Source: Deltaproteobacteria bacterium
GTDB lineage: Bacteria; UBA10199; SPLOWO2-01-44-7
Reading direction: 5' to 3'
Length of the DNA stretch: 64,000 nt
Assembly: GCA_016203765.1 (NCBI GenBank)
Contig: JACQMB010000145.1
Location: forward strand, 72,964 to 136,963
The stretch's first letter is position 1; each line of letters starts with the position of its first letter. This document shows positions 19,152-56,662 of the stretch, one piece after another. The position numbers and the translations under genes are program-made. Below the pieces are notes generated by a model that had not been told where the DNA came from, did no database searches, and saw nothing but the letters and a program-made list of their open reading frames with translations.

Positions 19152-19807
19152 AATATCCCATTGGACAGCCAGATGCCGACGGCGGCGATGTAAAGCCAGG
19201 CGGGCAAAATGCCGACCAGGGCAAAGAGAAAAAACATCAGTGAAAAAACGTCTTTCCGCATGAAGACGCGCCCGTAGCGGATGAAGGTCATCAAAAAAGA
19301 ACCGCTCTGGATCGGCAGTTTGGAGAGATATTCCTTGTCGAAAGTCACCAGGCTGGCTGATTTTGTGTTTCGCTTTAAAAAAAGAATAATTTGGAAAAAT
19401 AAAACGGCCAGGCCGGAAACGAGCAAGAGGGCCAAACCCCAGCCAAAGTTTGCCGCCAGCAGACCGGCAAAAAAACTGATCAACGCCCCGTTGTCGCTGA
19501 TGGAGTCGAGCCATTCACCCAACTTGGAGGTCATCCCGCGCAGTTTGGCCACCTCGCCGTCACAGCCATCAAAGATGGAAGCCATTTGAAAAAGAAAACC
19601 GCCCAAAAGGTAAAAAGGGTAGGTTCCTTGAGCCGTGAAAAAACCGGTGCTCCAGCCGAGGGTAATGTTGAAGGCGGAGATCCAATTGGGATGCACCCCC
19701 CATTTGGCCAACTGCCAGCTGATCGGCAGGGAAATGCGTTTGTTTAGGTGTCTCGCCACCGGTCCCGGTGTGGCCAGGCGGATGGCTTCCAGGCGTTTTT
19801 TGTCCAT
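19115..19807 (-). CDS. CDP-alcohol phosphatidyltransferase family protein, candidate DIPP synthase-like
   Basis: Signature DGCDGEVAKLRGMTSKLGEWLDSISDNG, matching D-G-x2-A-R-x8-G-x3-D-x3-D. Multiple TM segments. Confidence 0.8.
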   Translation of the reverse strand: MDKKRLEAIRLATPGPVARHLNKRISLPISWQLAKWGVHPNWISAFNITLGWSTGFFTAQGTYPFYLLGGFLFQMASIFDGCDGEVAKLRGMTSKLGEWLDSISDNGALISFFAGLLAANFGWGLALLLVSGLAVLFFQIILFLKRNTKSASLVTFDKEYLSKLPIQSGSFLMTFIRYGRVFMRKDVFSLMFFLFALVGILPAWLYIAAVGIWLSNGILLWLKWKQRIRP

Positions 19808-19886
19808 CCATCTCGAATATAGGCATCCGTGTCAGGACGCAACTATTTTTTGCAATGGGCGAAAATCTTTGGTAGGGAAGGGAAAA

Positions 19887-41080: not shown

Positions 41081-41411
41081 ATTGACCTCCTGATCAAGTT
41101 CCAAGGCCGTTATTTTTATTCTTGGCGGAACTTGATGAAAAGTTGCTTTATTGCACGAAAGTAAAGCAAAATTCGTGCCAGAAAATAGCAATATATTTTT
41201 TATTATAAATCATATAGATAGAAAATGCGTTTGACGTTGAATCGTGGTAATGTGTCTTTGGTTGGGACACAGTGTGCTAAAAGTAGGACACTTTTTGCAT
41301 GAGGCGCCCTCTTGGGCAGGTTATTATAAGTAATTGACAGTTTTAGGCTTTTTTTAATAATCTGAGGCGCACGGCGGTTGGCATTTGGTTTGCAGTTGCA
41401 AGAGAAGGTAC

Positions 41412-42164
41412 ATGGGGACAAAGAAAAAAACAGTAATAGCCCTGACCGCCCTCCTTTTTTTGGCCCCCGCCTGGGCCGGCGAGAAAGAATCAAAAAAGAA
41501 AAGCGAAATTTGGCTTTCCAATCCCGACCAGTATGTCTTCGACAAAATCGAGTTTCAGGAATCTTTTTTCATGCCGAAGACCGACCTGGTCGCAGGGCCG
41601 CAGACGGTCTACGGCTGGTTTGACCGTCTCACGCACCATTTCAGCTATGAGCAGGGAAACAATGTCCTGCTCCATTTCGAAGGAAAACATTATTCCAAAA
41701 AGTCGGGGGGTGTTTTGCCCAATTACGCGGTCCAGCTGAACATAGAAATTCCCCGGGGCCGCTTTAAGTCATGGGAGCGGATTGAGGCAAAGGATTTGAA
41801 GGGCTATCTCTCCTGGATACACCCCGATTTTCCCAAGGGGGATCTTTACATTCCGATCGCGGGGGGGTACGTTCAAATTCAGAAGGTCAAGGAGGGAAAA
41901 CTTTACGGCCACCTGGATTTGAAATTCGGGCACGAAAAACTGAAAGAGCCGATTCACATTTATGGCGGGCGCATCCGGGCCGGACGGCTCACCCGCCAGC
42001 AATACGCCTCCCTGCAGGAGGGGATGACGGAATCTCTCTACAAGGAGGCGGAAGGACTGGAGGAGATGCCGGTGCCGAAAGATCTGTTGAAGCCGGCCCG
42101 GAAGCGTTCCCGGCGCGGAGGGCCCAAAAAAGAGGAAGAGGCCCGAGGCTCGACGGCTTGGTAA
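41412..42164 (+). CDS. Secreted hypothetical protein, first gene of the Tad-like operon
   Basis: Signal peptide MGTKKKTVIALTALLFLAPAWA. Divergent from RHS-1. Confidence 0.45.
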   Translation: MGTKKKTVIALTALLFLAPAWAGEKESKKKSEIWLSNPDQYVFDKIEFQESFFMPKTDLVAGPQTVYGWFDRLTHHFSYEQGNNVLLHFEGKHYSKKSGGVLPNYAVQLNIEIPRGRFKSWERIEAKDLKGYLSWIHPDFPKGDLYIPIAGGYVQIQKVKEGKLYGHLDLKFGHEKLKEPIHIYGGRIRAGRLTRQQYASLQEGMTESLYKEAEGLEEMPVPKDLLKPARKRSRRGGPKKEEEARGSTAW

Positions 42165-42202
42165 TAAAGTTTTTTAAAAAACAAAATAAAGGAGGTGTTA
42201 TT

Positions 42203-42406
42203 ATGAAGTTCAAAGGACTCAAAAGAGATCAGCGGGGTCAAACCGCCACCGAGTATATGCTGATTATCGCGGTGGTGGTGCTGGGAGCTGTCGCCGGAGC
42301 CTCGATATTAATTCCGGAGTTTCGGGATGGGGTGACGCAGCTCTCCGCAAAAATTAAGAATATTCTAACGAATACTTCTACCCCAACGGCTCCAATTAAT
42401 CCGTAA
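42203..42406 (+). CDS. flp: Flp-family type IVb pilin
   Basis: 67 aa. Flp motif RGQTATEYMLIIAVVVLGA. AAGGAGG RBS 9 nt upstream. Confidence 0.8.
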   Translation: MKFKGLKRDQRGQTATEYMLIIAVVVLGAVAGASILIPEFRDGVTQLSAKIKNILTNTSTPTAPINP

Positions 42407-42434
42407 GCCTAAGGCGAAAAGGAGTTTTTAATAA

Positions 42435-42893
42435 GTGAGGGACGAAACGGGTCAGACAGTTACGGAGTTCATGCTGGTCCTCCCTTTTTTTCTGATGGTG
42501 GTTTTTACCGTCATGCTGTTGGCCTTCGCGGTGATCAAGGCAGAAATGGTCACGTATGCCACATTTTGGGGGGCACGGGTGGCAGAGGTGGGAGGGGGCC
42601 GCGCGGCGGAGGTGGACGACGACTACCAACAGGCCGCCCAGGAGGTATTGCCCGGTATCGCGATGAGCAAACAAAAACTCTTTGGGGTGGTTTATCGCAT
42701 GAACGGCTCTTACCACTTCAACCCCATTTTGGGAAAGGCCGGCGGCGAAGACAGCCTCAATTCCCCGCTGGCCGACCTGAATAATTTGGAAACGTGGGTT
42801 CCGCTCCACCTTTTTCCGAAGTCCAGACCTTGCGTTATTTTGGGAAATGACAACCCGATCGGCCATGATCCCTGCTACCCAAAAGAATTTTAA
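42435..42893 (+). CDS. TadE-like pseudopilin
   Basis: N-terminus ETGQTVTEFMLVLPFFLMVVFTVMLLAF matches the TadE-like pattern. Confidence 0.6.
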   Translation: MRDETGQTVTEFMLVLPFFLMVVFTVMLLAFAVIKAEMVTYATFWGARVAEVGGGRAAEVDDDYQQAAQEVLPGIAMSKQKLFGVVYRMNGSYHFNPILGKAGGEDSLNSPLADLNNLETWVPLHLFPKSRPCVILGNDNPIGHDPCYPKEF

Positions 42894-43791
42894 CGAACGA
42901 GGCCAGTTGGCGGTGCTTCTGGCCATGATCTTCCCGATGCTGATCATGCTCTTGGCCTTTTTCGTGAATTTGAGCCTGTTGATTCACAAAAAGGTAAAAC
43001 TGCAGACCGCCGTCGATGTCGGGGTCTATTCCGGCGCGGCCTCCCTGGCCTACGACCTCAATCACATCGCCCAGCTCAACCGCGAAATCAATGAACTCTA
43101 TCAGGGTGATCCGTTCGCCAACAAGGAATGCAAGTGGAATTCCCTCTCCCTGAAAGAGTATCTCGAAAAAGACAGCCTCCACATGTACTATATCGAAAGA
43201 AAATACATGCAGTATCTCAACGAGTTTCAGTCTTGTCTCGACACGATCGACGACATCAACAAGGAAGCGGTGGACAAGGCCCTCGCCTTCGCGCAAGAGG
43301 CCGCGCGGTGGACCTACTACAACGGGAAACCGCCCGCCGAGGACCCGGCCCGCTTCGAATTTGACACCCTCTATAAAAAGAGCGGCGACCCCATGATGGA
43401 ATACCGGTTTTACGTCACCACCGAATCGGGAGAAAAAATCGTCTGTAAAAAGTACGACAAGGTCACCTGCTTCGATTTTTGGCACGATGAGGGAAAGGAG
43501 ACGTACACCAAAGACGTCAACCTTCCCATCGCCAAGACCAGCCCGGTTTTTTTCGTGGGGCAGGCCTCCGCCAATGTCGGTTTCGGCAATCTCTGGTCGG
43601 AGAATTTCCGGGTGGCCGGCCGGCATTATGACGAGACCGGGAGCGGCCAAATCCGCCTCAAGACCTACGCCGCCGGCCAGCCGTTCGGCGGCTCCGTGGC
43701 CGGTTTTGACGACAAATATCGGGCGACGCTGGTCCCGATCGAAAACACCAAAGTCAAGGTGGGGGATTATCCGAATGGTTTTTGGCACTGA
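42847..43791 (+). CDS. TadG-like Flp-pilus assembly protein
   Basis: N-terminus RGQLAVLLAMIFPMLIMLLAFFVNLSLL...AVDVGVYSGAASLA fits the TadG N-terminal domain. Confidence 0.55.
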   Translation: MTTRSAMIPATQKNFNERGQLAVLLAMIFPMLIMLLAFFVNLSLLIHKKVKLQTAVDVGVYSGAASLAYDLNHIAQLNREINELYQGDPFANKECKWNSLSLKEYLEKDSLHMYYIERKYMQYLNEFQSCLDTIDDINKEAVDKALAFAQEAARWTYYNGKPPAEDPARFEFDTLYKKSGDPMMEYRFYVTTESGEKIVCKKYDKVTCFDFWHDEGKETYTKDVNLPIAKTSPVFFVGQASANVGFGNLWSENFRVAGRHYDETGSGQIRLKTYAAGQPFGGSVAGFDDKYRATLVPIENTKVKVGDYPNGFWH

Positions 43792-44104
43792 CAAAAAAGA
43801 AAATCAAAAGGGATTTGCCTCCTTTGAGTTTGCCTGGGCGGCCTTTTTTCTGACCCTTTTGATCATTGTCTTTTTTCGGTTTTTCGATATGTTGAACAAA
43901 ACCACCCGCGCCCTGATTGTGGCGCGCCATCGGGCCTTTGAAACGGTGGGCCGGCCGGCGGGGGGCGCGGTCAGGCAGGGCGAGATACCGAGCAGTGTCC
44001 CGCTCGATTGTGAGGATGGCCGTTGCCGGTTCAGCGCGTCGCCGGTGAGCCCGTTTTTTCCGGAGGGCGGTGAGCAGAACGTTTTTTTGGTTTTAAATCC
44101 CTGA
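43775..44104 (+). CDS. Second TadE-like protein
   Basis: GFASFEFAWAAFFLTLLIIVFF N-terminal pattern. The ORF-track upstream extension overlaps tadG in another frame. Confidence 0.45.
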   Translation: MVFGTDKKENQKGFASFEFAWAAFFLTLLIIVFFRFFDMLNKTTRALIVARHRAFETVGRPAGGAVRQGEIPSSVPLDCEDGRCRFSASPVSPFFPEGGEQNVFLVLNP

Positions 44105-44114
44105 AAGGAAAACC

Positions 44115-44942
44115 ATGGACTTGAAAAAGAAATTGATCTTCTCCGGCGTGCTGGGAGTACTGGCCTTTATCGGCATTCTCTCCTACGTGCGCAACAAGGA
44201 GCAACATCTCCTCCAGCTTAGTGAAATGACCTATGTCCTGGCGGCCGCCAAGGATATTCTGGCCAACACCCAGATCGATGAGACGATGGTCGGCCGGATT
44301 CAGGTCCCCAGGAAATTTGTTCAACCGATGGCGTTAACCAGCCTGCGAGACGCGATCGGCCGGGTCGCCTTCGCCCCCATTCACGAAGGGGAGCAGATTT
44401 TGGGAACAAAACTGATCCAGCTGGGCTCGCAGACCGGCCTGGCCATGAAAATCCCGGTCGGGTTCCGGGCCGTCTCCATCGCGGTCAACGAGGTGACGGG
44501 GGTCGCCCACCTGATCCGCGCCGACGATTTTATCGATGTGTTGGGGAGTTTTGATTTCGGCGACCAGGCCCAGGCCAAAAAATATACCTACACCCTTTTT
44601 GAAAATATCCAGGTCCTGGCGGTGGAACAGAATATGGGCGAGGGTTTTACCACGGGCCTCCCCAAGGAGGAAAAGGGGGAGGGCGTGTTGAGCCGCCTGA
44701 TCGCCGAGCAGAAGGCGGGGGGGCAGGGGATGACGCTGACGCTGGCCATGTCCCCGGAGGATGCCCAGCGCCTCGTTCTGTCCCAGGAAACGGGATCGAT
44801 CTCCGTGGCCTTGCGCCCCCGCTTCGGTTCGGACAACATCTTGAAGCTGGAACCGGTCACGCCGTATGACCTGACCGGTTTGAAATCATTGATCCGGCAG
44901 TCCAAACAACCGACCTACATGGAATATAGAGGGGGGCGATAA
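44115..44942 (+). CDS. cpaB: Flp pilus assembly protein CpaB/RcpC
   Basis: N-terminal TM, a SAF-like segment, then a CpaB-type C-terminal region. Positioned before the secretin. Confidence 0.75.
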   Translation: MDLKKKLIFSGVLGVLAFIGILSYVRNKEQHLLQLSEMTYVLAAAKDILANTQIDETMVGRIQVPRKFVQPMALTSLRDAIGRVAFAPIHEGEQILGTKLIQLGSQTGLAMKIPVGFRAVSIAVNEVTGVAHLIRADDFIDVLGSFDFGDQAQAKKYTYTLFENIQVLAVEQNMGEGFTTGLPKEEKGEGVLSRLIAEQKAGGQGMTLTLAMSPEDAQRLVLSQETGSISVALRPRFGSDNILKLEPVTPYDLTGLKSLIRQSKQPTYMEYRGGR

Positions 44943-44944
44943 AC

Positions 44945-46357
44945 ATGAGCACAAGGAAAATCATCTGCACACCGCTGTTGATCCTGATGTTGTTGTTGCC
45001 GTGGAAGGGCCGGGGGCAGGTCGCCGACCAGCAGTTGGTGGTGGGCCGGGCCAAGACCCTGACCACCGCCTACGAAGTCGGCGACATCGCCATGAGCAAC
45101 GTGGAGATATGCTCTTTTGTGGTGAGGGAAAATCGGCGGGAGATTTATTTGAATCCGTTGACGGAGGGGAGTACCACCCTGACCATTTGGGACACGGAGG
45201 GTAAAAAAAGAGACAGCTCCCTGCTGACCGTGGTGGCCGTGGACGTCGATGCCGGCCTGAAAGCGGCCCAGGATTTCACCAGAAACATTCCGGGGGTGAG
45301 GGTCTATCTGGAGGGTTCGACGGTCGTCCTTGGCGGCGAGGTCCATACCCCGGCCCATCTCAAACAACTGGAGGGCTATGCCGAAACGCATCCCGAGGCC
45401 CGTTCGGAGGTGAAGCTCTCCAGCCAGGCCATGAACGTGATCGCCAAGCGGATCGAGGAGGCGATCAATACGCCGGGCATCCAGGTGCGGGCGGTGCGCG
45501 ACAAACTGATCATGGAGGGGTTGACCTACTCCGACGATATTTACAAAAAAATCGATACCATCGCCAAACTCTATGCCCCGGAAATCATCAACCTGGTGGA
45601 GGTCCGCGAGGCCAACCGCCGCCCCGGTTACGACAAAACCGTCCGCTTCGACATCTACTTTATGGAGGTCAAAAACTCGGCGCTCCGGGCGTTCGGAATC
45701 AACTGGGCCCCGGGGGCGGTCATCCAACAGCAGGCTGAAAAGGGTGGGGGGTCCGGCGGAGGCGGTTTCCTTGGGGGCGGGTTCAACGCCATGATCGGTT
45801 TTGTGATGAATCTGGTGCCGAAAATCCGGTGGATTCATCAGACCGGCCGCGGCAGGATTTTGGAAAAGCCCTCTTTTATCGTGAAGAGCGGCGAGCCGGT
45901 CAACTTCTTCAGCGGCACGCAGGTCCCCTATTACGGGGAACAGGGGGTTTCCTTCAAGGAGGTGGGGATTAAGGTGAATGCCGAGCCGATTGCCGCGGGC
46001 GACGAGATCGACTTGAAGGTCACGGTCGACGTCTCCACCCTCTCCTCGACGGTCGCCGAAGGGATCGACACCAACAACGTGACCACCTCGGTCTTCGTGA
46101 AGTCGGGCCAGGCGGTGGTGTTGGGGGGACTGGTCCGCAACGCCGATGTCAAGACCTATAACAAGGTCCCGAAGAATCTGGATACGACCTCGGCCATCTT
46201 CACCCTGTTTTTATCGAGGGATTTTCAGACCAATAAATCGCAGTTCTATGTCTTCCTCGTTCCCGAGGTGCTGGAACAGCCCCAGGCGGCCGAGATGAAG
46301 CTGAAACGCTGGCTTGAAATCAACAAGGAAATCGAGCTGTCGCGAAAATTTAAATGA
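44945..46357 (+). CDS. cpaC: Tad secretin CpaC/RcpA
   Basis: Signal peptide. C-terminal secretin blocks FFSGTQVPY, VFVKSGQAVVLGGLV and FVFLVPEVL. Confidence 0.8.
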   Translation: MSTRKIICTPLLILMLLLPWKGRGQVADQQLVVGRAKTLTTAYEVGDIAMSNVEICSFVVRENRREIYLNPLTEGSTTLTIWDTEGKKRDSSLLTVVAVDVDAGLKAAQDFTRNIPGVRVYLEGSTVVLGGEVHTPAHLKQLEGYAETHPEARSEVKLSSQAMNVIAKRIEEAINTPGIQVRAVRDKLIMEGLTYSDDIYKKIDTIAKLYAPEIINLVEVREANRRPGYDKTVRFDIYFMEVKNSALRAFGINWAPGAVIQQQAEKGGGSGGGGFLGGGFNAMIGFVMNLVPKIRWIHQTGRGRILEKPSFIVKSGEPVNFFSGTQVPYYGEQGVSFKEVGIKVNAEPIAAGDEIDLKVTVDVSTLSSTVAEGIDTNNVTTSVFVKSGQAVVLGGLVRNADVKTYNKVPKNLDTTSAIFTLFLSRDFQTNKSQFYVFLVPEVLEQPQAAEMKLKRWLEINKEIELSRKFK

Positions 46358-48498
46358 GTGCGGCGGTCATCAGCATTGTCGGCACCAAAGATGCGTGCGG
46401 GGCCTCGACCTTTGCCGCGAACCTGGGATTCCTCCTTCAAAAATTGTCCCACAAAAAAGTCCTCCTCTTTGATTACGATTTCAGCTATTGCGGCGACCTC
46501 CATCTTTCCCTCGACCAAAAGGAGTCCGCCTACGCCACCGATCTGATCGGCCTGGCCGGCAAGAAGGGGGCCCAAAAGATGCTGGAGGGTTTTATCCCCC
46601 GGCATCCGCGGGGCGTGCACCTCCTCCAGGCCTTCGATCCGCAGAAAAAGACGCACCGGTTTTCACCGGAGGATTTCGCCGGGGTCTTCTCCCTGCTGGC
46701 CGAGGCCTTCGATTATATTCTGGTGGATGGGGGGAGCAGTTGGACCCCCTATCATCTCCATCCCTTTTTGGGGTCCGGTCTTATCTTTTTGGTGGCCCAG
46801 CCGACGCGGGCTCTCCTCCGGGAGGCCTCGCATAAAACCGGCCGCCTCATGTCCGGTTTTATTCCGAAGAGCAAGCTGAACATCATTTTGAACAGGGTTG
46901 TGCAGACGGACGGGTTGAACACGCGGCAGATGGAGGAGCACTTTTCCGGATTAAACTGTTTTTATCTTCCGGACCGGCCCGGCAAAATGGAAGAGGCCTC
47001 CGGGGAACCGCTTTGCCTTCTGGACGTGCGCGACCCCTACACCCTGGGGATTGAGAAGATCGTCCGGGAGGCCCTCTTGAAGAAAAAACTGCCCTCCTTC
47101 CGTTTGGAGGAACATTCGGCGCCGGAATGGGGGGCCTTTGTCCCTTTCTGGGCGGCCTTCAACGGAGGGCCGACGGCCGCCGCGGCACCCGCGCGCGGCG
47201 CGGCTCAGGCCCCGCCGGTTGAAGAATGGGACCAATTGAAAGGCCAAATTTTAAAACAGTTGTTGAAGATGGTCGATTTTAAATCGATGGGGCTGGAACA
47301 GGCCAAGGATCAGAAAAACGAACAGGCCCTGCGGGAAAAAACCAGGGAGGCGATCCTGAAAATCCTCAACGCGATGGGGGAGGATGCCGTTGAACAAAGC
47401 AAAAAAAAACAACTGGTCGCGGAGGTTTTGGACGAGGCGCTCGGGCTGGGGCCGCTGGAGGTGCTCCTCGCCGATCCCAAACTCACCGAGATCATGATCA
47501 ACGGCAAGGACCATATCTACGTCGAAGAACGCGGAAAATTAAAGCGAACCCCGCTTCGTTTCAGTTCGGAGGATCAGCTCTCGGCGGTCATTGAAAGGAT
47601 CGTCGCCCCCATCGGCCGCCGGATCGATGAATCGACCCCCCTGGTCGACGCCCGGCTTCGGGACGGCTCCCGGGTGAATATCATCATTCCCCCCCTCTCT
47701 CTGGTCGGCCCGGTGGTGACCATCCGCCGTTTTTCCCAAACCCCGCTACAGGTGAGTGACCTGGTGGGCTTTGGCAGTCTCTCCGAGGGGATGGCCGAGT
47801 TTTTGCGCGCCGCCATTGAGGCGCGATTAAATATCGTGGTTTCCGGAGGAACCGGTTCGGGAAAAACAACCCTGCTCAACGTTTTGTCCTCTTTCATCGG
47901 GAACGATCAGCGGATTGTCACCATCGAGGACGCGGCCGAGTTGAGGCTCGGCCAGGAACACGTGATTTCTCTGGAATCGAGGCCCCCCAACATCGAGGGG
48001 AAGGGGGATATCCCGATCCGGACCCTGTTGAAGAACGCGCTCCGGATGCGGCCGGACCGGATCGTGATCGGGGAGTGCCGGGGAGGGGAGGCGCTGGATA
48101 TGCTCCAGGCGATGAACACCGGCCACGACGGCTCGCTCACCACCGTCCACGCCAACACGCCGCGCGATTGCGTCTCCCGTCTGGAAACCCTGGTGATGTA
48201 CGCGGGGGTGCAGCTCCCCTCCAAGGCCATCCGGGGCCAGATCGCCGCGGCCATCGACATGATTGTCCAGCTCAACCGGCTCTCCGACGGTAGCCGCAGG
48301 ATCACCAAGATCAGCGAGATCACCGGCATGGAGGGGGATGTGATCACCCTGCAGGATATCTTTGTCTTCAACCAGGAAAAAGTGGATGCCGACAAAAAGG
48401 TGATCGGCAAACACGCCCCGACCGGGGTGGTCCCCCGTTTTGTGGAAACGCTCCGCCAGCGGGGGATTGAGCTTTCCAGAAAGTATTTTCAGATATGA
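46354..48498 (+). CDS. Fused CpaE/TadZ-like (ParA/MinD-fold) plus CpaF/TadA secretion ATPase
   Basis: Residues 1-300 have the deviant ParA-like pattern GTKDACGAST...ILVDGG. Residues 330-714 carry the VirB11/TadA N-domain and Walker A VVSGGTGSGKTTLLN, plus Walker B and His box. Confidence 0.8.
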   Translation: MSAAVISIVGTKDACGASTFAANLGFLLQKLSHKKVLLFDYDFSYCGDLHLSLDQKESAYATDLIGLAGKKGAQKMLEGFIPRHPRGVHLLQAFDPQKKTHRFSPEDFAGVFSLLAEAFDYILVDGGSSWTPYHLHPFLGSGLIFLVAQPTRALLREASHKTGRLMSGFIPKSKLNIILNRVVQTDGLNTRQMEEHFSGLNCFYLPDRPGKMEEASGEPLCLLDVRDPYTLGIEKIVREALLKKKLPSFRLEEHSAPEWGAFVPFWAAFNGGPTAAAAPARGAAQAPPVEEWDQLKGQILKQLLKMVDFKSMGLEQAKDQKNEQALREKTREAILKILNAMGEDAVEQSKKKQLVAEVLDEALGLGPLEVLLADPKLTEIMINGKDHIYVEERGKLKRTPLRFSSEDQLSAVIERIVAPIGRRIDESTPLVDARLRDGSRVNIIIPPLSLVGPVVTIRRFSQTPLQVSDLVGFGSLSEGMAEFLRAAIEARLNIVVSGGTGSGKTTLLNVLSSFIGNDQRIVTIEDAAELRLGQEHVISLESRPPNIEGKGDIPIRTLLKNALRMRPDRIVIGECRGGEALDMLQAMNTGHDGSLTTVHANTPRDCVSRLETLVMYAGVQLPSKAIRGQIAAAIDMIVQLNRLSDGSRRITKISEITGMEGDVITLQDIFVFNQEKVDADKKVIGKHAPTGVVPRFVETLRQRGIELSRKYFQI

Positions 48499-49361
48499 GC
48501 ATCGGCGCGGTTTTGGTCAGTCTGTTTTCCGCGGGGTCGGTCGGCCTCCTCTTTTCTTTATGGCTCCAGGAGCTGGCCAAATTTTTGCGCCGGCAGATCG
48601 AGGCCGAAGAGGCCGCCTGCGAGGTTTGGCTCGCCAAATCGCTCATTGAATTGAAGGGGGCGGAAAAAAAGCTGTTTTGCCTTTGCGGGCCTCTGTTGGG
48701 CATTATCCTTTCCTTTTTGCTCCTCCCCGGCGTTTTTTGGAAGATCGCCGGGGCCTTGCTCTCCGCCCTCATCCTCAAGCGGCTGGGAAGGAGACTGGCC
48801 CGCCGTCTTTACCGGCGGCGGATCAAGGAGATTCAAAACGTTTTTGTCGACACCCTCGGGCTGGTGGGGAATGCCCTCCGCTCGGGACTCTCCCTTTATC
48901 AGGGTTTTGAGATGGCGGTCGAACAGATGCCCGGCCCGATCGCGCAGGAATTAAACCAGGTCCTGTCGGAGAACCGCCTCGGCCAGACCCTGGAGGCGGC
49001 CCTCGTCAACATGAAAAACCGGGTTCCCCTCAAAGAGGTGGCCAGCATGGTCGACTCGGTCTTGATCTTGAGGGAGACCGGAGGCAACCTGGTGGAGACC
49101 TTCGAGACGCTGATCAATACCCTGCGGGAAGAACAAAGGGTGCAGGACAAAATCAAAACATTGACCACCCAGGGCCTGGCCCAAGCGGTGGTGATTGTCC
49201 TCCTCCCGTTTGGTCTGGGAGGGGCCCTCTACTGGGTCTCCCCCGATTATATGTCGCCCTTGTGGAGCCACTGGCTGGGCTGGATCTGCATTTTGCTTAT
49301 CCTGTTTCTGCAGGGGCTGGGGGCTTTTTTGATGAAAAAAATTATTTCGATCAGGATTTAA
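48495..49361 (+). CDS. tadB: TadB-like inner-membrane platform protein (T2SS-F domain)
   Basis: Three TM segments with a T2SSF-like central domain, immediately after the ATPase. Confidence 0.7.
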   Translation: MSIGAVLVSLFSAGSVGLLFSLWLQELAKFLRRQIEAEEAACEVWLAKSLIELKGAEKKLFCLCGPLLGIILSFLLLPGVFWKIAGALLSALILKRLGRRLARRLYRRRIKEIQNVFVDTLGLVGNALRSGLSLYQGFEMAVEQMPGPIAQELNQVLSENRLGQTLEAALVNMKNRVPLKEVASMVDSVLILRETGGNLVETFETLINTLREEQRVQDKIKTLTTQGLAQAVVIVLLPFGLGGALYWVSPDYMSPLWSHWLGWICILLILFLQGLGAFLMKKIISIRI

Positions 49362-49363
49362 CG

Positions 49364-50218
49364 ATGCGAAAATTTTTAACCGTCCTTTTGATGTTAATCT
49401 CTTTTTCCCTCTTCGGCGGCGATGCGGAGGAGGTCCTGCTCCAGTTTCGTCCGACGCCGCGCCCCCTCAGTTATCTGGCCGCCTTTCATCTTCAGGAAAC
49501 CGACCTCATGAATATCGCCATGGAAACGGGGGAAAGCAAAATCCTGCAACGGGAGAAGAAACACTACATGGAAATTCGCAAGGATCTGACCCGCCGGGGC
49601 AGTCAGACCGATATCCCCTTTACGGAGACGGCGGTCCAGGCCTCCCTTTTGGACAACACCGCGAAGATTCATATCCTCAAGAACGAGTCGGGAGAGGGGC
49701 GGACCGCCAAGCCAAGGACGATGGTCACCAGCCAGTTTATCAACGGCCGGCTGGTCCAGCCCTTCGACCTCGCCGATTTGAGCGCGGCCGGTCTGCCGCT
49801 TTTGTTTTCCGATCAAAAGGTGAAACAGGGGAGCCTATGGGAACGCCCGATCGATTTCAAAAGGGAAAACCTCCCCCCGCTGGCCTTCAACACGAAATAC
49901 GAGGTCGTCGCGTTTCAACACCTGGCCGGGCACCCCGTGGCGGTAGTAACCTACACGTTCAAGGCCGCTTTGCAATCCACCCTGATCAGCCAGGATCCCC
50001 TCATCCAGCAAAAGGTGGCCGAATTAAAAAGGGAGAACGTGGAGAGCGTAGCGTATAAGGGAGAGGGAAGGTTCACGTTTGACTACCGCGAGGGTTTGTT
50101 GCTGACCCACAGCCTGACGATGAGCGAGAAAATCAGCAAATCCTATATCGAGGGGCGGCAAAGAAAATTGCAGGATATCGTTCGCATTTATGAATATTCG
50201 GAGGCGTTGATTCCGTAA
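49364..50218 (+). CDS. Secreted hypothetical protein
   Basis: Signal peptide MRKFLTVLLMLISFSLFGG. The ORF-track upstream part is read-through. Confidence 0.45.
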   Translation: MRKFLTVLLMLISFSLFGGDAEEVLLQFRPTPRPLSYLAAFHLQETDLMNIAMETGESKILQREKKHYMEIRKDLTRRGSQTDIPFTETAVQASLLDNTAKIHILKNESGEGRTAKPRTMVTSQFINGRLVQPFDLADLSAAGLPLLFSDQKVKQGSLWERPIDFKRENLPPLAFNTKYEVVAFQHLAGHPVAVVTYTFKAALQSTLISQDPLIQQKVAELKRENVESVAYKGEGRFTFDYREGLLLTHSLTMSEKISKSYIEGRQRKLQDIVRIYEYSEALIP

Positions 50219-50223
50219 CACCG

Positions 50224-51141
50224 ATGGCGCTGATTTTTTACAACCTGATCTTCTCGGCGGCGGCCGGCTTCTGGGGGCTGACCCTTTATGAAATGTCGCA
50301 ACAACGCCGCGCCCAGCGGCGGCTGACCCAGCGGGAGGAGGCGGTCGACAAAAAAAGCCTGGTCGACTACACGTTTCGCCCCATTTTTACTTCCTACAGC
50401 CATCTCTTCAAAAAAATCCACCTGGAATACTACCGCCGCTTCTTGAGGCGAAAATTCGTGCAGGGGGCGGTCGCGCGCAAATACAATGAGGAAATCTTCT
50501 GGGCCTTTCAAATTTTCATGGGGTTTTTGTTCGTCGCCCTCTACTACGGGCTGGCGGCCTATTGCCGTTTTCTTGGGTTGGCAATCCCCACCCCGTTCTG
50601 GCTGATGGTCATGGTTTTTGCCGCGGGGCTCGGTTATCCTCTCCTCTGGCTCCATTCCCTGACCAAAAAGAGGCTGGGGGAGATCGTGCGTCTTTTTCCG
50701 GAATTTGTCACCAACCTGGCCCTCGCGGTGGAGGCGGGAATGGATTTTTTCAGCGCCATGGGCCGTTACGCGAAAAATTTCGAACAGAATCCGCTGGGCC
50801 GCGAGCTCCAAACCGTCATCACCGAGGTGCAGTTGGGGGCCTCGCGCGAGGAGGCGCTCCGGCACCTGGCCGGGCGGCTTCAAATCAGGCCGGTCAGCGC
50901 CTTTGTCTCGGTGATGGTGCAGACGACCCGGCTGGGGACCTCCGTTGGCCAGGTCCTGCGGGTTCAGGCCGAACAACTGAGGCGGGAACGCTTCGAGGCG
51001 GCCGAACGGGCCGGGGTGAAGGCCTCGCAAAAGATTTTGTTTCCCCTGGTTTTTTTCATCATGCCCGCCGTCTTTTTGCTGATCTTCGGGCCCCTGATCG
51101 TCAAATTATTGACCGGCGGGATTGAAGCGTTGTTCCTGTAG
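50224..51141 (+). CDS. tadC: TadC-like inner-membrane platform protein (T2SS-F domain)
   Basis: TM topology and the T2SSF block LALAVEAGMDFFSAM...LRVQAEQL. Confidence 0.7.
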   Translation: MALIFYNLIFSAAAGFWGLTLYEMSQQRRAQRRLTQREEAVDKKSLVDYTFRPIFTSYSHLFKKIHLEYYRRFLRRKFVQGAVARKYNEEIFWAFQIFMGFLFVALYYGLAAYCRFLGLAIPTPFWLMVMVFAAGLGYPLLWLHSLTKKRLGEIVRLFPEFVTNLALAVEAGMDFFSAMGRYAKNFEQNPLGRELQTVITEVQLGASREEALRHLAGRLQIRPVSAFVSVMVQTTRLGTSVGQVLRVQAEQLRRERFEAAERAGVKASQKILFPLVFFIMPAVFLLIFGPLIVKLLTGGIEALFL

Positions 51142-51148
51142 GAGGAAA

Positions 51149-52306
51149 ATGGAAAAAGATTACGCGATGCTGTTGAGAGACAGAACGGAGGGCCTGATCA
51201 AAAAGGTCAGGGAGATGTCCTGGGTGCAGAAGGCCGTCCGGTATTTCCTGACCCTCGAGTGGTCGGAAAAGATTCTGTTCCTTTTCGGCGTGACGTTTTT
51301 TCTGCTGATGATGACTGGCCCCTACGCACTGCTCTACCGGCAGACGGGGGCGCTCCTTTCGGAGGCCCAACTGCGGGGATTGACCCTGGCCCGCTATTTG
51401 GCCGCCGGCAACCAGGCCGCCTTTACCCGGAAACAGGAGGTCCTCTATTCGGTGGAGGGGGTGATCCATGAACGGGGCGTGGAGGATGCCATGATCACCG
51501 ATCTGGAAGGGACCATCCTTTCCCCCGTGGAACGTTTTGGCCAAACTCTGCCTTTGACCCGGAAGGTTGAAAACCCCAACCAGTGCCAGCGTTTTAAAAA
51601 GGGTTTCGATCTTGAGTTTGTCTGCCCCCTGTTCCGGTGGCTTGAATCCTCGGACGGTTTTTCGAGGCAAACCATCGGCCTGGCCTATCTGAAATACAAT
51701 GCCCGGGAAAGCCTTGACCTTTTGGGTTCGCAAACTTTTCAGATGATCAAATACATATTTTTGTTCGCCTTTTTGATCGGGCTGACCGCCTACGCCTTTT
51801 TGGCTTTGACCCAAAAATCGCTCCTCGATTTTAAATTCGCCGTCCGGACGGCCGCGCGAAGCGGGAATCCGCTCGACATCCCCAGGCATTTTAAGGCCCT
51901 GCGCGAGATCGCCCTGGAAATCCAGGAACTCCAACAGCAAAAGGCCGCGGTGGGGCGCGCCGACTCCCCCGCCCCCGCCGACGCCTCCTCGCTCGCGGGA
52001 GAGATGATGGCATGGCTGGGGCCTCTTCTGAAAGAGCCGGTCCTGCTTTTGGACGAACGACAGCAGATTGTCCATTGCTCCAAGCCGCTCCGGGAAAAGT
52101 GGAAGGCCGCCCCGGAGGGCCACATCCTTCGCGCCCTAAAGGACTCCCCCTTCATGGAGCCCCTCATCGATTTTGTTGGGGCGTTGGGCGAAAATCCGGA
52201 GGAACCCCACACGCAAACCATCAAGGGCCTGGGATCCCTGCGGGGGGAATCCCTCAACCTCCAGGGAAAAAAATATTTTCTTATTCGAAAGGGGGGAACG
52301 GAATAA
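51149..52306 (+). CDS. Bitopic membrane protein with a periplasmic domain between two TM segments
   Basis: TM1 ILFLFGVTFFLLMMTGPYALLY and TM2 IFLFAFLIGLTAYAFLAL. No catalytic motif. Confidence 0.4.
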   Translation: MEKDYAMLLRDRTEGLIKKVREMSWVQKAVRYFLTLEWSEKILFLFGVTFFLLMMTGPYALLYRQTGALLSEAQLRGLTLARYLAAGNQAAFTRKQEVLYSVEGVIHERGVEDAMITDLEGTILSPVERFGQTLPLTRKVENPNQCQRFKKGFDLEFVCPLFRWLESSDGFSRQTIGLAYLKYNARESLDLLGSQTFQMIKYIFLFAFLIGLTAYAFLALTQKSLLDFKFAVRTAARSGNPLDIPRHFKALREIALEIQELQQQKAAVGRADSPAPADASSLAGEMMAWLGPLLKEPVLLLDERQQIVHCSKPLREKWKAAPEGHILRALKDSPFMEPLIDFVGALGENPEEPHTQTIKGLGSLRGESLNLQGKKYFLIRKGGTE

Positions 52307-52852
52307 ATGCTCAGCACGGAGGGTAAAAAATTATTTAAAAAGGCCCTGATCGGGATGGGCGGCTTTTTTTGCGTTCTCCTGATCCTGCGCCTTTTTATCT
52401 CCCCTAAAAAACCGTCGCCGGCCGCGGAGACTGGACGGGACGAGAGTTTTTTTCAGCTCTCTGAAATGGAAATCGAAAAACTGCCGGACACAAAGGAAGA
52501 TGCGGCAACCTACAGCGCGAATCAGAGACTGGTCCATCTCCTCCACTCCTATGCCTTCAACTATTTTCAATCCAAACGCCTGAAAAACGCGATCTCCCTT
52601 TGGGAAACCGCCGGCTACCTGGAGCCGGGCAACGCGGTGATCGGGCTTCGGCTGGAGCAGGCCCGGGAGGCCCTCAACTACCTGGTGCAGGAGAATATCG
52701 CCTTGGGGATGCGCGATTTTAAGTATCTCCGCTATGCCGAGGCGATCGAGCATTGGCGCCGGGCTTCCAATCTGGTCGCCGGCATCGATCCCGCGGCCCA
52801 TGAAAAAATCAAGCGGTGGATCACCAAGGCCGAAAGGAAACTGAGACAATGA
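52307..52852 (+). CDS. Small membrane-anchored TPR-like protein (TadD-like candidate)
   Basis: N-terminal TM followed by TPR-like helices. Confidence 0.35.
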   Translation: MLSTEGKKLFKKALIGMGGFFCVLLILRLFISPKKPSPAAETGRDESFFQLSEMEIEKLPDTKEDAATYSANQRLVHLLHSYAFNYFQSKRLKNAISLWETAGYLEPGNAVIGLRLEQAREALNYLVQENIALGMRDFKYLRYAEAIEHWRRASNLVAGIDPAAHEKIKRWITKAERKLRQ

Positions 52853-54210
52853 GTTTTACCTTTGATTATCAATTCCGGGGGAAAAGGGGGATTCTGGAGA
52901 TCGAAAAGGCCGGCGTTTTTTATTTGGACCTGTCGGAGGAGAGGCCGATCGCCTATTCCAACCCCGCCGCCGGCCCCCCTTTTCTGATTCTCTGCGGCCG
53001 GCAGGAGGTCTTTGCGGTATGGGAGGGGAAGGGACACCGCCTTGCCCCCGAACAACCCTTTTCAGCAGGGGGGCTGACCCTTTCCTGGCGGCCCGAGGAG
53101 ATTGCCTGGGGGAGGATACAACCCTATTTACAAACGGTCCTTCATTGGATACAGACCGAGAGAAAGAAGGCGCTGGGGTTGGGTTCGGCAGTACTCGTCC
53201 TGCTGGTGATCGGAGTGATTCTGGCGGGTTCCAAGGAGGGGAAATTGACGCAGGAAACCGTGGTCCAGGCCACCCAGGAGTTGAAAGGGAATGCCCTTTT
53301 TGCCGTGCGCCTTAAATTGTCTGAACAGGCTCTTGAAGAAAAAAATTATCCGTTGGCCGCGGAGTTGGCCGACAAGGTCCTCACAGCCTCGCCCGCGAAT
53401 CCCCAGGCCATGGCCCTGAAAGAAAAGGCGCTGGCCTCCTTGGAGGCCTCGCAGAAGGAATCCCAAATAGAGGTAAAAAAAGAAATCCGCTTTAAGGAAA
53501 TTTTAGACCAGGTTACCGCCCTGATGGCGGCCAAGGATTATCATGGCGCCCTCTTCCGGGTTCAGCAGGTCCTGGAGGCCGACCCGGGACATGCCGAGGC
53601 CTTCCGCATGCATGAGGCGATTCAAAAGGAACTGGCGAATCTGGAACAAAAAGAGATCCAAACCGTGGGCGCCGATGCCGAAAGTTTGGAACGAGCGGAG
53701 GAACTTTGGAAGAGCGGGAAGGGGGCCTTCGACGCCGAAAATTACGGGCGGGCCTGGCGGAATTTTATCGACGCCCTGGCTTTGCTTAAAGAAAGAAACC
53801 TGCATCCCCCGTTCCGCGTTGATCTCAATGAGCTTTTGACGCAAACCGAGGCCGCCCTGGCCGACCAGGCCCGGCCCATGGTGGATCAGGCCCGTGAATT
53901 AAGAAACCTGGGCCAGAACAGCCAGGGTCAAAAGAGGGCCGAATATTTTTCGGAGGCCCTGACCCGCTACTACGCGGCCGAAAAAATTTATCCCGAATTT
54001 GAAGGACTCCGCAATGAAATCGGAATGGTCATCGAACGCCTCAACAAGGCGGTGGAGCCCTTCTTTGTGGAGGCCCAGACCATGAAGGATCTGGAGGGGT
54101 GCTGTCCCTCCCATCCCCATTTCAAAAAGGTCATGGGTCTTGCCAAATACGAATCGGTTCCGTTATACAAACAAGCCAAGGAGATGCTGGAGATATGTCC
54201 GTGCCGGTAA
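52849..54210 (+). CDS. TPR-repeat protein with a central TM segment
   Basis: TM LGLGSAVLVLLVIGVILAGS followed by TPR-like repeats. Confidence 0.4.
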   Translation: MSFTFDYQFRGKRGILEIEKAGVFYLDLSEERPIAYSNPAAGPPFLILCGRQEVFAVWEGKGHRLAPEQPFSAGGLTLSWRPEEIAWGRIQPYLQTVLHWIQTERKKALGLGSAVLVLLVIGVILAGSKEGKLTQETVVQATQELKGNALFAVRLKLSEQALEEKNYPLAAELADKVLTASPANPQAMALKEKALASLEASQKESQIEVKKEIRFKEILDQVTALMAAKDYHGALFRVQQVLEADPGHAEAFRMHEAIQKELANLEQKEIQTVGADAESLERAEELWKSGKGAFDAENYGRAWRNFIDALALLKERNLHPPFRVDLNELLTQTEAALADQARPMVDQARELRNLGQNSQGQKRAEYFSEALTRYYAAEKIYPEFEGLRNEIGMVIERLNKAVEPFFVEAQTMKDLEGCCPSHPHFKKVMGLAKYESVPLYKQAKEMLEICPCR

Positions 54211-55757
54211 AAAAAATTTTGATTCTCCTCTGCGCGGGTCTTTTTCCCTGGAGCGGTCCCTGGGCCAAGCCGGCCGTCGAGCCGATCTATATCCCGCTCG
54301 ATCATGTCCGCGTCCCCCATCCGGGCGCCGGCTGGAATTACCGGGTCGGCTCCGACCAACTGCGCATCGAATTCAAGGAAGAGGCCTCCCTCCGCAACGG
54401 GGCCTACCCGAGCGTTGTCCTCCTCTCGCGCCGGATCGTGGATGCCTCCCCCTACGCCGCGGCCTGGCAGCGCGCGGAACTCAAGGGTCTCCCGAAACGC
54501 TACCAGGTTGAAGCCGGCGACGCGGCGGCGGCGGATGCCTTTCAGATCAACTATTCCTTCACCCAAAACCTGATGCGCGTGGAGGGGGCCCGGTTCTACA
54601 AGCCGCAGGGCCACTGGCTTTACCTGTGGGAGTGTCAGCGGGAACAGGGCGGGGGCGTTGATTTGAAAAAATGGTGCCGGGACCTGTTCGCGAACATCCA
54701 ATGGTCGGAGGATATCGCGATCGCGTCGCCCGAACAGGTGGACGATTTGGATGCACTGGTCGCGAAGATGTCCTTTGCCCCCCCTCAATTGCAAAAACAG
54801 GAAACGGATCTGATCGCGGGCCTGCAAAAAACCCCGCTGACCTTCAACGACCTGATGGCCTACGGGGCCTTTCTGATGGTCCGCTCGCTCCTCTATCCTC
54901 CCCCCGAAGGACAGCAGGGGGACCTGATCGAGAATTTCAAAAAGATGTCGCTGATTTTCAGAAAAGATCCGCGCTACCGGACGGTGAGCGAATGGTTTGC
55001 GGTGCACGCCGAGGTCCTGGGAGGCCTGTTTAATTTGAAAAAGGCCAAAGAGGTGGCGCAGTCGAACGAGCGGCCTCCCTTCTGGCTGTTGAGCTTGTGG
55101 GTGGAGCCCCTCTCCCCGGGGATCGCCGCGAGCATGATCGCCCGCGAGGATTTTGACAAGGGCCTGGAACACTACGTGCAGGGGACGCTCCTTCATAAGA
55201 CCGGTCATGGGGACGAGGCCCTCACTCCTTTGAACAAGTCGGCCGGCCAATTTGGGGCGCTGGCTTGGGAACAGATGGCGCGCATCCATCTTGAAAAACA
55301 AGACCGCGATAAGGCGAAAATTTACGTTGAAAAAATCCTGAAAAAAAGTCCGGACCATGTCGGCGCGAAACTCCTTCTGGCCCGCATTTTGGAGGCGACC
55401 GAGGAGCCCCCCCAACTGGAGGAGGCCCAGAAGATCTACGCTGACTTGACCGCAAAGAAAGACCTCTCCGGGGACGAAAAACTGAATATCTTTTTGCAAA
55501 AGGCCAAAAACAGCATCCATCCCGAAATCCAGACGGAGTATTATGAAAAGGTTTTGGAGATTGACCCGAATCATCTGGACGCCATCTACGCGCTGGGCCG
55601 CCTCTATCTTTTGGAATATAATGACAAAAAGAAGGGGGTCCAATATTTTGAAAAATTCATTGCGAAGGCCCCCAAGGAAGACGAACGCGTGCAGGAATTG
55701 ACCGCCATGGTGCGCGATCTCCGCCATGAGATCTATTCGAGTCAAATTCCGGAATAG
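54195..55757 (+). CDS. Secreted TPR-repeat protein
   Basis: Signal peptide MSVPVKKILILLCAGLFPWSGPWA and C-terminal TPR repeats. Confidence 0.45.
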   Translation: MSVPVKKILILLCAGLFPWSGPWAKPAVEPIYIPLDHVRVPHPGAGWNYRVGSDQLRIEFKEEASLRNGAYPSVVLLSRRIVDASPYAAAWQRAELKGLPKRYQVEAGDAAAADAFQINYSFTQNLMRVEGARFYKPQGHWLYLWECQREQGGGVDLKKWCRDLFANIQWSEDIAIASPEQVDDLDALVAKMSFAPPQLQKQETDLIAGLQKTPLTFNDLMAYGAFLMVRSLLYPPPEGQQGDLIENFKKMSLIFRKDPRYRTVSEWFAVHAEVLGGLFNLKKAKEVAQSNERPPFWLLSLWVEPLSPGIAASMIAREDFDKGLEHYVQGTLLHKTGHGDEALTPLNKSAGQFGALAWEQMARIHLEKQDRDKAKIYVEKILKKSPDHVGAKLLLARILEATEEPPQLEEAQKIYADLTAKKDLSGDEKLNIFLQKAKNSIHPEIQTEYYEKVLEIDPNHLDAIYALGRLYLLEYNDKKKGVQYFEKFIAKAPKEDERVQELTAMVRDLRHEIYSSQIPE

Positions 55758-55761
55758 GACG

Positions 55762-56109
55762 ATGGGGGTTGCCCTGGCCGAGGGGCGGCTGGCCAGGCTT
55801 TTGGGAATGAGTTTTCGCGGCGCGTGGAAGAAAGAAGGGATGCTGTTTGTTTTTAAAAAACAGGGCCGCTATCCTTTTTGGATGTGGGGGATGCGCCTGC
55901 CGATCGATCTGGTCTGGTTAAAGAAACGGACGGTGGTCGGTTTTGAGGAAAATCTCCAGCCCCCGGCCTCCCGTTGGCACCTGCTCTTTCCCTTTCTGCT
56001 GAGGCGCTACCGTCCGCCGGAGGCCGTGGACGGCGTGCTGGAAGTTCCGGCCGGGTTTTGCCGGCAGAACCGGCTGAAAAGGGGGGAGGTACTCGATGCG
56101 CAAAATTAA
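55762..56109 (+). CDS. DUF192 (COG1430) family protein
   Basis: GMLFVF...YPFWMWGMRLPIDLVWL matches the DUF192 core. Confidence 0.5.
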   Translation: MGVALAEGRLARLLGMSFRGAWKKEGMLFVFKKQGRYPFWMWGMRLPIDLVWLKKRTVVGFEENLQPPASRWHLLFPFLLRRYRPPEAVDGVLEVPAGFCRQNRLKRGEVLDAQN

Positions 56110-56662
56110 CAACAGACAAGGACAAGCCGCCGTGGGTTATGCCCTGGCCCTGGCCGTCGTGGCGGTCGGCATGGGTGTGGTTTTAAACAGCCCCGAGCTG
56201 AGGCAGGGGATTGCCGAATTTTACACCAACGCCGCCACCCGCGTTATTCATGGCGGAAAATTCGGCGAATCCGATTTGACCGCCGCCAAGGATGAAACAT
56301 GGGGATCAGCGCCTTCGGATGAAACGGCCGGAACGCCGACTGAAAGCGGAACTCCCTCCGGCGGGGACGGCACGGGTGCCGGAGATGGTTCCTCAGGCGG
56401 TTCTTCGGATTCCGGGCAGACCACCCAGACAGGGGGCGGCGGCTTGGGGACCGGGGGGGTGAATACCCCGGGAACGGTTCCGGGCGAGACGACTGCTTCC
56501 ACGGGTCCCTCGACGCAACCCACCGCGCCAACGGGCTCCGTCCCGCCGGAACCCGGCGCGCCGAAAGGTCCCTTTGCCGATCAAAATATGTCTTCCGCCC
56601 CGGTTGAAAATCCGCAGGAGCCGGCGCAATGCGAAGCGGCGGCGGATAGCGCCGGAATATGA
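56096..56662 (+). CDS. Pilin-like protein with a non-canonical Flp-type N-terminus and a Gly/Ser/Thr-rich tail
   Basis: NNRQGQAAVGYALALAVVAVG resembles the Flp G/xxxxEY motif with E replaced by G. The C-terminal ~120 aa is G/S/T/P-rich. Stop overlaps the RHS-2 start. Confidence 0.45.
   Translation: MRKINNRQGQAAVGYALALAVVAVGMGVVLNSPELRQGIAEFYTNAATRVIHGGKFGESDLTAAKDETWGSAPSDETAGTPTESGTPSGGDGTGAGDGSSGGSSDSGQTTQTGGGGLGTGGVNTPGTVPGETTASTGPSTQPTAPTGSVPPEPGAPKGPFADQNMSSAPVENPQEPAQCEAAADSAGI

Follow-up and report, generated by a model that had tools for sequence, protein, structure and literature searches.

In canonical loci for Tad (Flp, type IVc) pili, the positioning factor TadZ/CpaE and the motor ATPase TadA/CpaF are the products of two genes, as in Aggregatibacter, in Caulobacter and in many phyla. 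A different organization has been described for tad locus 1 of Bdellovibrio bacteriovorus, where a TadZA fusion ATPase consists of a ParA/MinD-like TadZ region that has a Walker A-like motif, K/RGGXGXS/T, and no receiver domain (ARD), followed by a flexible linker and by TadA (Tesseur, Denise, Santin & Laloux, bioRxiv 2026-07-08, 10.64898/2026.07.08.737194). According to the same preprint, TadZ with the linker is both needed and enough for binding of the polarity hub RomR, TadZA moves dynamically between the poles, and predation requires the tadZA-tadB operon, while tadC is encoded elsewhere and TadV is not in the loci; processing of Flp in Bdellovibrio is reported to be by PilD. Placement of the Tad machine, for instance at a pole, is known from published work for CpaE and TadZ as well as for this TadZA. 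A passage of the preprint refers to an earlier reference in which the fusion had already been noted, and a 2026 paper (PMC13147790) mentions fusions of the TadZA type in Peredibacter and further Bdellovibrionota. In the Kil (Tad-like) predation system of Myxococcus xanthus, KilF is a fusion of an FHA domain with CpaF (PMC8460266). Here we analyze a gene of this kind, which we call tadZA, in a 64,000-nucleotide stretch of DNA from a "Deltaproteobacteria bacterium" (GTDB lineage Bacteria; UBA10199; SPLOWO2-01-44-7), positions 72,964 to 136,963 of the forward strand of contig JACQMB010000145.1 in assembly GCA_016203765.1; this whole stretch is referred to as the window, and all positions are counted from its first nucleotide.

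On the basis of its sequence, tadZA very probably encodes a fusion of the TadZA type, that is, a Tad pilus motor ATPase with a ParA/MinD-like positioning subunit in the same polypeptide. An earlier note on this DNA, made by a model without database searches, had described the product as an unusual architecture, which overstates its novelty: the arrangement is already known and widespread, being published as TadZA in B. bacteriovorus, noted in Peredibacter and abundant in metagenomes. KilF, in which a regulatory or localisation module likewise precedes CpaF on one chain, was considered as the closest described system and rejected, as its N-terminal module is an FHA domain and not a ParA fold.

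The product of tadZA has the same domain order as the B. bacteriovorus protein, namely a ParA/MinD-like TadZ region devoid of the ARD, a flexible linker and TadA, and the gene order rcpC/cpaB - rcpA/cpaC - tadZA - tadB is shared with five Bdellovibrionota loci (L002-L006). The homologues in these loci, all single open reading frames (ORFs) of 716-740 aa, match tadZA end-to-end over residues 1-714 with 40-44% identity, whereas the identity of the N-terminal domains is about 25-29%. The Walker A motif of this domain differs as well, being KDACGAS here and KGGVGKS in most Bdellovibrionota copies, and so does the position of tadC, which is encoded in cis here, elsewhere in B. bacteriovorus, and not after tadB in L002-L006. 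Compared with the canonical two-gene system, the two halves are homologous to the C-terminal ParA-fold domain of CpaE (E 1e-33) and to CpaF (E 1e-120), respectively, and the CpaE-before-CpaF gene order is mirrored in the domain order of tadZA; the differences are the single polypeptide, which forces a 1:1 stoichiometry, and the N-terminal ARD of ~130-165 residues, present in canonical CpaE/TadZ and absent from both the tadZA product and the window.

The tadZA reading frame and its two halves

The gene and the parts of its product, delimited by the methods given in brackets, are as follows.

46354..48498, + strand: tadZA fusion gene, a single 714-aa ORF starting with ATG, comprising a TadZ/CpaE-like domain and TadA/CpaF
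46354..47088, + strand: predicted ParA/MinD-fold domain of the CpaE/TadZ type, with no receiver domain (ARD) in front of it (residues 1-245; hidden Markov model (HMM) of CpaE, AlphaFold2 (AF2) model, family profile)
46387..46410, + strand: degenerate deviant Walker A motif, KDACGAST (residues 12-19; column counts over 81 fusions)
47089..47217, + strand: interdomain linker (residues 246-288; AF2 model)
47143..47151, + strand: short PFW motif, a candidate partner-docking motif (residues 264-266; kept in the five nearest relatives)
47218..48498, + strand: complete CpaF/TadA, with a helical N-terminal bundle, an N-terminal domain and a RecA-like ATPase domain (residues 289-714; phmmer, Foldseek, AF2 secondary structure)
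47845..47871, + strand: intact Walker A motif of the secretion ATPase, GGTGSGKTT (residues 498-506, invariant in 81 sequences)

Translation of 46354..48498 yields 714 codons with zero internal stops, and both the GC content and the skew are even across the domain junction. The ATG of the ORF overlaps the TGA of the preceding secretin gene as ATGA (46354), which points to translational coupling within the operon. The possibility that the single ORF arose by an error of sequencing or assembly, such as a missed stop or frameshift that joins separate cpaE and cpaF genes, has in its favor the public annotation of this genome: the NCBI records MBI4125677.1 and MBI4224185.1 cover only the C-terminal 409 residues, as a "CpaF family protein" starting from Met306, and leave the ~911 nt upstream (window 46354-47268; positions 5090-6000 in L001, a contig of a second assembly), the TadZ-like half included, without annotation. 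The ORF is open in both assemblies, however. The second, independent metagenome-assembled genome (MAG) contig at NCBI (GCA_016206415.1, JACQRO010000201.1; L001) has no mismatch to window positions 41278-52639 and a single 9-nt indel, which falls outside tadZA, in the secretin gene, so that the two assemblies have the same DNA across the ORF and the same open frame of 714 codons. Moreover, 80 database proteins of 702-800 aa, from independent samples, align collinearly over at least 97% of the length of tadZA with 42-61% identity, and in two of the nearest relatives (contigs from JGI 3300013121 and Logan SRR33375181) the gene has been called as a single product of 719 or 716 aa. Homology to CpaF begins at residue 295 (280 by profile), upstream of the annotated start, and Met306 lies within a predicted conserved helix, residues 289-306, which a start at that position would cut. 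Nor was a convincing Shine-Dalgarno sequence found ahead of Met306, and on these grounds the NCBI start is judged to be mis-called. Room of the size of the ARD, as a canonical cpaE would need, is absent. The 714-residue fusion gene is thus real and not an assembly artefact, an explanation to which we assign hardly any probability and which can be considered effectively refuted. The single 714-aa ORF proposed in the earlier note therefore stands, and no stop or frameshift was found at nt ~47250-47350, where the note had placed a possible split.

The C-terminal half is a complete TadA/CpaF, as had been suggested from the motif VVSGGTGSGKTT, which occupies residues 495-506. Residues 363-644 match Pfam T2SSE (E 2e-62), residues 326-654 match the NCBIfam model of the TadA-type ATPase, and a phmmer search of the PDB aligned residues 295-706 with the solved structures of Caulobacter CpaF (9e24, 8rkd, 8rjf) at E ~1e-120. 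In an alignment of 81 sequences, the motifs GGTGSGKTT, EDAAEL, RMRPDRIVIGECRG and AMNTGHDGS are invariant. A full-length AF2 model built from this alignment has a mean predicted local distance difference test score (pLDDT) of 88.5 and matches CpaF structures 8rjf/8rkd in Foldseek with template modelling (TM) scores of 0.81-0.85. The best 50 Foldseek matches to the full-length model were all of the CpaF type, and the N-terminal domain was for this reason modelled separately.

The TadZ/CpaE-like domain and its Walker A motif

General domain models recognize the N-terminal domain only faintly. Residues 6-93 match Pfam CbiA/ParA with 27.0 bits, the cut-off being 25.4, and the MinD and CpaE models of NCBIfam match residues 2-185 weakly, MinD with 27-28 bits against cut-offs above 200. 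Modelled alone by AF2 (residues 1-250), the domain is predicted with a pLDDT of 93.3 and a predicted TM score (pTM) of 0.92 and displays all secondary structure elements of the ParA fold. Its best structural match is PDB 3ea0, a stand-alone "ParA family ATPase" of 245 aa from Chlorobium tepidum (TM scores 0.83/0.86, root mean square deviation 2.5 Å), followed by FlhG, MinD, FleN and Soj. A profile built from the N-terminal domains of the fusion family also ranks 3ea0 best, with 124.7 bits (5-238 vs 5-238), above MinD (74.5), FlhG (72.7) and the Eubacterium rectale TadZ structure 3fkq (40.6). Like the domain studied here, 3ea0 is a single domain without an ARD; it differs in being unfused to an ATPase, and its identity to the N-terminal domain is 21-22%.

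The assignment to the CpaE/TadZ type is based on genomic position and reciprocal profile comparison. In a scan of species-representative genomes, proteins of ~390-440 aa were matched by the N-domain profile with 110-195 bits over their C-terminal ~240 residues; their genes lie immediately before a separate cpaF, and they occur in Acidobacteriota, Actinomycetota, Chloroflexota, Nitrospirales, Planctomycetota and other groups. Each of these proteins has an additional N-terminal region of ~130-165 residues, which is the canonical CpaE/TadZ layout. Conversely, an HMM of the ParA domains of 50 such stand-alone proteins from other phyla matches residues 4-238 of the tadZA product with 102.6 bits (E 1e-33), covering profile positions 3-237 (235/239). 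An exhaustive search of 1.84 billion representatives is in agreement: below the fused proteins and their fragments, proteins of ~380-440 aa are matched at about residues 130-390. Since the proteins upstream of cpaF match the family profile and their own HMM matches tadZA, the N-terminal domain is, by these comparisons, a CpaE/TadZ ATPase-fold domain. A word-indexed homologue search with the N-terminal domain alone (271 aa) gave zero matches at E <= 0.001, a result that reflects the sensitivity limit of the tool, as local BLAST with the same domain finds the relatives P0008 (E 1e-73) and P0007 (E 1e-71).

The ParA fold begins at residue 4, leaving no space for an ARD ahead of it. An HMM derived from the N-termini of 50 CpaE proteins, which matches 74 ORFs in the comparison loci, has no match among all ORFs of the window (best E 1.6), and no second ParA-like ORF was found within the 64 kb. 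The deviant ParA/MinD-like N-terminal half with the sequence GTKDACGAST, as well as its TadZ-like identity, had been recognized correctly in the earlier note, which overlooked the loss of the receiver domain of canonical TadZ; alignment to the CpaE and CpaF profiles, which it had recommended, places the boundaries at residues 1-245 for the ParA fold, 246-288 for the linker and 289-714 for CpaF/TadA.

In the sequence GTKDACGAST (residues 10-19), the signature lysine of the deviant Walker A motif (Lys12) is retained, while Gly13 is replaced by Asp, Gly14 by Ala and the P-loop lysine, Lys17, by Ala. Column counts over the 81 fusions reveal a glycine at position 14 in 75/81 and a lysine at position 17 in 63/81; Gly14 is otherwise missing just in the four nearest relatives of tadZA, which have the same type of degenerate motif, and in one other sequence. 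The motif KDACGAS departs from the TadZ/CpaE consensus K/RGGxGx[ST], of which it retains K, the second G and S and has DA in place of the GG pair, and also, by the substitution of Lys17, from the MinD/FlhG-type motif KGGxxGK[ST] with its two lysines. Other residues that are invariant or nearly invariant in the family are all preserved (G16, N23, D40, D42, G47, D48, D125, G127, N180), among them D40 and D42, the switch aspartates, and D125 of Walker B. Canonical TadZ likewise lacks the second lysine, and PMC6668835 (citing Xu 2012) describes TadZ with its atypical Walker A motif as binding ATP with low ATPase activity. Since tadZA has lost the P-loop lysine and two P-loop glycines, even though K12, D40, D42 and D125 remain, its N-terminal domain is most likely a non-hydrolysing module and possibly binds no nucleotide at all.

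Two alternative views of this domain have to be weighed against a TadZ/CpaE origin and function. It could be a generic MinD/FlhG/ParA ATPase, recruited independently of TadZ/CpaE, that cycles as a membrane- or DNA-patterning ATPase. Such an origin would fit the canonical deviant Walker A motif KGGVGK[ST], with both lysines, in 63/81 family members, the presence of MinD, FlhG and FleN among the top structural matches and the rank of the solved E. rectale TadZ below MinD in the profile search. The proteins defined by their position directly upstream of cpaF score far above MinD, however, and show the same mixture of lysine and other residues in Walker A (a lysine at the P-loop position in 19/49 stand-alone CpaE proteins). 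Cycling of the MinD type is unlikely for the present copy in view of its missing P-loop lysine, and no minC/minE or parB-like partner genes were found in the locus. We therefore consider a generic ATPase very unlikely. It is also conceivable that in this lineage the domain is a decaying, functionless relic, the protein being a CpaF with a long inert leader. The doubly degenerate Walker A motif and the Pfam ParA match barely above threshold are compatible with decay, as is the much faster evolution of the N-terminal domain, which has 40-44% identity to the nearest relatives vs 72-75% for the ATPase half. Stand-alone CpaE proteins, however, are likewise fast-evolving and often lack the P-loop lysine. 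Furthermore, the high-confidence predicted fold with every ParA-fold element, the retention of all remaining invariant residues, the conserved short PFW motif of the linker and the maintenance of the domain and its motif type in at least four diverged relatives, within a conserved 16-gene operon, all speak against a relic, which we regard as most improbable. The reading that we favor is a TadZ/CpaE-type domain that is retained as a positioning module.

Linker, relatives and proposed mode of action

In the model, the linker, residues 246-288, has a pair of short helices of low confidence in an aromatic-rich segment (256-269) and, after them, a stretch rich in Ala and Pro (271-287) that is disordered (pLDDT <50). 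These helices follow the ParA fold, at the place where a MinD/FlhG-type ATPase would have an amphipathic membrane-targeting helix; no min or flagellar genes are present in the locus. Across the family its length ranges from 31 to 66 residues, with a median of 49. The sequence is variable except for the PFW motif, which appears in the five nearest relatives as FVPFW, LVPFW, LLPFW, LTPFW and FTPFW. By analogy with Bdellovibrio, where the linker is needed for RomR binding, PFW could be a docking motif. More distant members of the family have a related linker motif, xEKW or LPFT[FY].

Many rows of the genome scan that span residues 5-714 of the query were tried as candidate fusions and rejected, a check of the ORFs revealing in most cases a cpaE and a cpaF that are separate neighbors and that tblastn had run together. 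True single-ORF fusions among the species-representative genomes scanned are only L002-L007, L009, L010 and L015, which come from Pseudobdellovibrionaceae, Oligoflexia, Bdellovibrionales, Bdellovibrio sp. HCB288 and a groundwater "Deltaproteobacteria" MAG, and, more distantly, from Omnitrophota and WOR-3 MAGs. In public data as a whole, the N-domain profile finds thousands of related sequence clusters, both fused and stand-alone. A neighbor-joining tree of the ATPase part, a crude distance-based tree without support values that serves as a lead only, groups the main TadZA sequences into one clade, with other ParA-CpaF fusions and FHA-CpaF fusions, which have the KilF architecture, as neighbors. 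The FHA-CpaF proteins, from Myxococcota and other MAGs (L044:7641-9248, L081:7572-9272, L060:7317-9380, L019:7521-9239, L033:7554-9293), are the nearest neighbors without a ParA domain in this tree, and this branch of CpaF may have repeatedly acquired N-terminal regulatory modules.

Two observations on more remote proteins were made in the same searches. Four single-ORF ParA-CpaF proteins from Omnitrophota, WOR-3 and an unclassified MAG (L010:2368-4545, L015:8001-10160, L009:2038-4470, L007:4068-6176) have N-terminal domains that score no better with the family profile than stand-alone CpaE, and they may represent independent fusion events. Six Chloroflexota "CpaF" proteins (P0001-P0006) of 1148-1188 aa score 1035-1184 bits, above every single-domain homologue, suggesting that a single chain holds ATPase modules in tandem or in duplicate.

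By homology, the CpaF part of tadZA would hexamerise under the TadB/TadC platform, and the hexamer would use ATP for polymerisation of the Flp pilin and, as in Caulobacter, for its depolymerisation. The six tethered N-terminal domains would constitute a 1:1 adaptor that, together with the linker, may attach the motor to a protein that serves as a landmark or polarity factor, a role played by RomR in B. bacteriovorus, and such docking would set where the pilus machine is active. In the present copy the N-terminal domain would then be a scaffold or dimerisation module and not a cycling ParA ATPase.

Several points weigh against this interpretation. A shorter product is formally possible, given the NCBI start at Met306. 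The pTM of the full-length AF2 model is 0.58, and the relative arrangement of the domains is accordingly unpredicted by it. The term "TadZ-like" rests on a set of CpaE proteins defined by genomic context and not on the one solved TadZ, as 3fkq (40.6 bits) ranks below MinD (74.5). The loss of nucleotide binding is drawn from motif changes alone, and Asp13 is common even in members with an intact GK[ST]. With 40-44% overall and about 25-29% N-domain identity to Bdellovibrionota TadZA, partner specificity would not be transferable from those proteins, and neither a RomR-like gene nor a receiver-domain gene was found in the 64-kb window.

These data show that the TadZA of Bdellovibrio belongs to a large family and is not an oddity of one species, and they correct the annotation of two public records in which the TadZ-like half was blank; the current understanding of Tad systems is unchanged by tadZA. 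The family provides a natural Walker A series, from the canonical KGGVGKS to the doubly degenerate KDACGAS, and with it one could examine whether, in a positioning domain tethered covalently to the motor, the binding of nucleotide matters. An unlikely extension would be that in the lineage formed by tadZA and the relatives P0007, P0008, P0021 and P0023 the TadZ half is a nucleotide-independent pseudo-ATPase that docks via PFW to a partner other than RomR, and that the distinct 16-gene operon described below, which in this uncultured "Deltaproteobacteria" lineage has tadC in cis and several conserved genes of unknown function and is here flanked by two paralogous RHS toxins, marks an apparatus for contact-dependent predation or killing, so far unrecognised, that lies outside the cultured Bdellovibrionota.

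The tad operon and its surroundings

The tadZA gene is part of a complete 16-gene tad operon, and the order of the 16 genes is kept in two relatives, L082 and L083. The operon reads flp, tadE, tadG, a gene for an unknown 109-aa protein, cpaB, cpaC, tadZA, tadB, a gene for an unknown 281-aa protein, tadC, a gene for an unknown 385-aa protein, three TPR genes and a DUF192 gene. The genes other than tadZA for which a feature was assigned are listed here with the supporting match.

42203..42406, + strand: candidate Flp pilin of 67 aa (Pfam Flp_Fap at E 1e-4, which does not reach the gathering score; same position in L082)
42435..42893, + strand: TadE-like pseudopilin, 152 aa (Pfam TadE, 22.8 bits, at the cut-off)
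42847..43791, + strand: TadG/TadE-like protein, about 308-314 aa (Pfam Tad PF13400, E 1e-6)
44115..44942, + strand: CpaB/RcpC (TIGR03177, 134.5 bits vs a cut-off of 71; Pfam RcpC)
44945..46357, + strand: CpaC/RcpA secretin (Pfam Secretin and T2SS-T3SS_pil_N; its stop overlaps the tadZA start)
48495..49361, + strand: TadB platform protein (Pfam T2SSF, E 7e-19; 36-43% identity to the gene after tadZA in the Bdellovibrionota loci)
49373..50218, + strand: conserved gene between tadB and tadC, about 281 aa (no Pfam match; same position in L082 and L083)
50224..51141, + strand: TadC platform protein, in cis (Pfam T2SSF, E 4e-18)
51149..52306, + strand: conserved gene after tadC, 385 aa (hydrophobic segments predicted; no Pfam match; kept in L082 and L083)
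52307..55757, + strand: three TPR-type proteins of 181, 464 and 552 aa that may be TadD-like accessory factors (Pfam TPR; kept in L082 and L083)
55726..56109, + strand: DUF192 protein, encoded by the operon's last conserved gene (Pfam DUF192, E 5e-19; kept in L082 and L083)

Four genes whose position is conserved in the three operons of this subclade have no Pfam match (41412-42164, 43775-44104, 49373-50218 and 51149-52306). A prepilin peptidase (TadV/CpaA) was not found among the genes of the operon (window 41400-56100), and in this respect the locus resembles that of B. bacteriovorus, where none is seen either. Over 11.4 kb, the sole difference of the tadZA region from L001 is at window position 45753, where one extra copy of GGCGGAGGC, an in-frame repeat of 9 nt, changes the copy number in a Gly-rich stretch of the secretin, the two versions of which have 470 and 473 aa.

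The operon is flanked by genes for two giant RHS-repeat proteins, each with a DUF6531 domain, that point away from it: 34835-41191 (- strand, 2118 aa) and 56659-63009 (+ strand, 2116 aa). The two proteins are 77% identical over ~1880 residues, while their last ~200 diverge, a pattern known from polymorphic toxins; RHS genes are not present beside the homologous operons in L082 and L083. Farther upstream, window 19635-21350 (+ strand) encodes a 571-aa protein whose sole match is a C-terminal sigma-70 region 2 (residues 434-500), preceded by a long N-terminal part without a family match, and in window 23388-31452 (- strand) the gene for a bacterial alpha-2-macroglobulin (1914 aa) adjoins that for a PBP1C-type penicillin-binding protein (679 aa).

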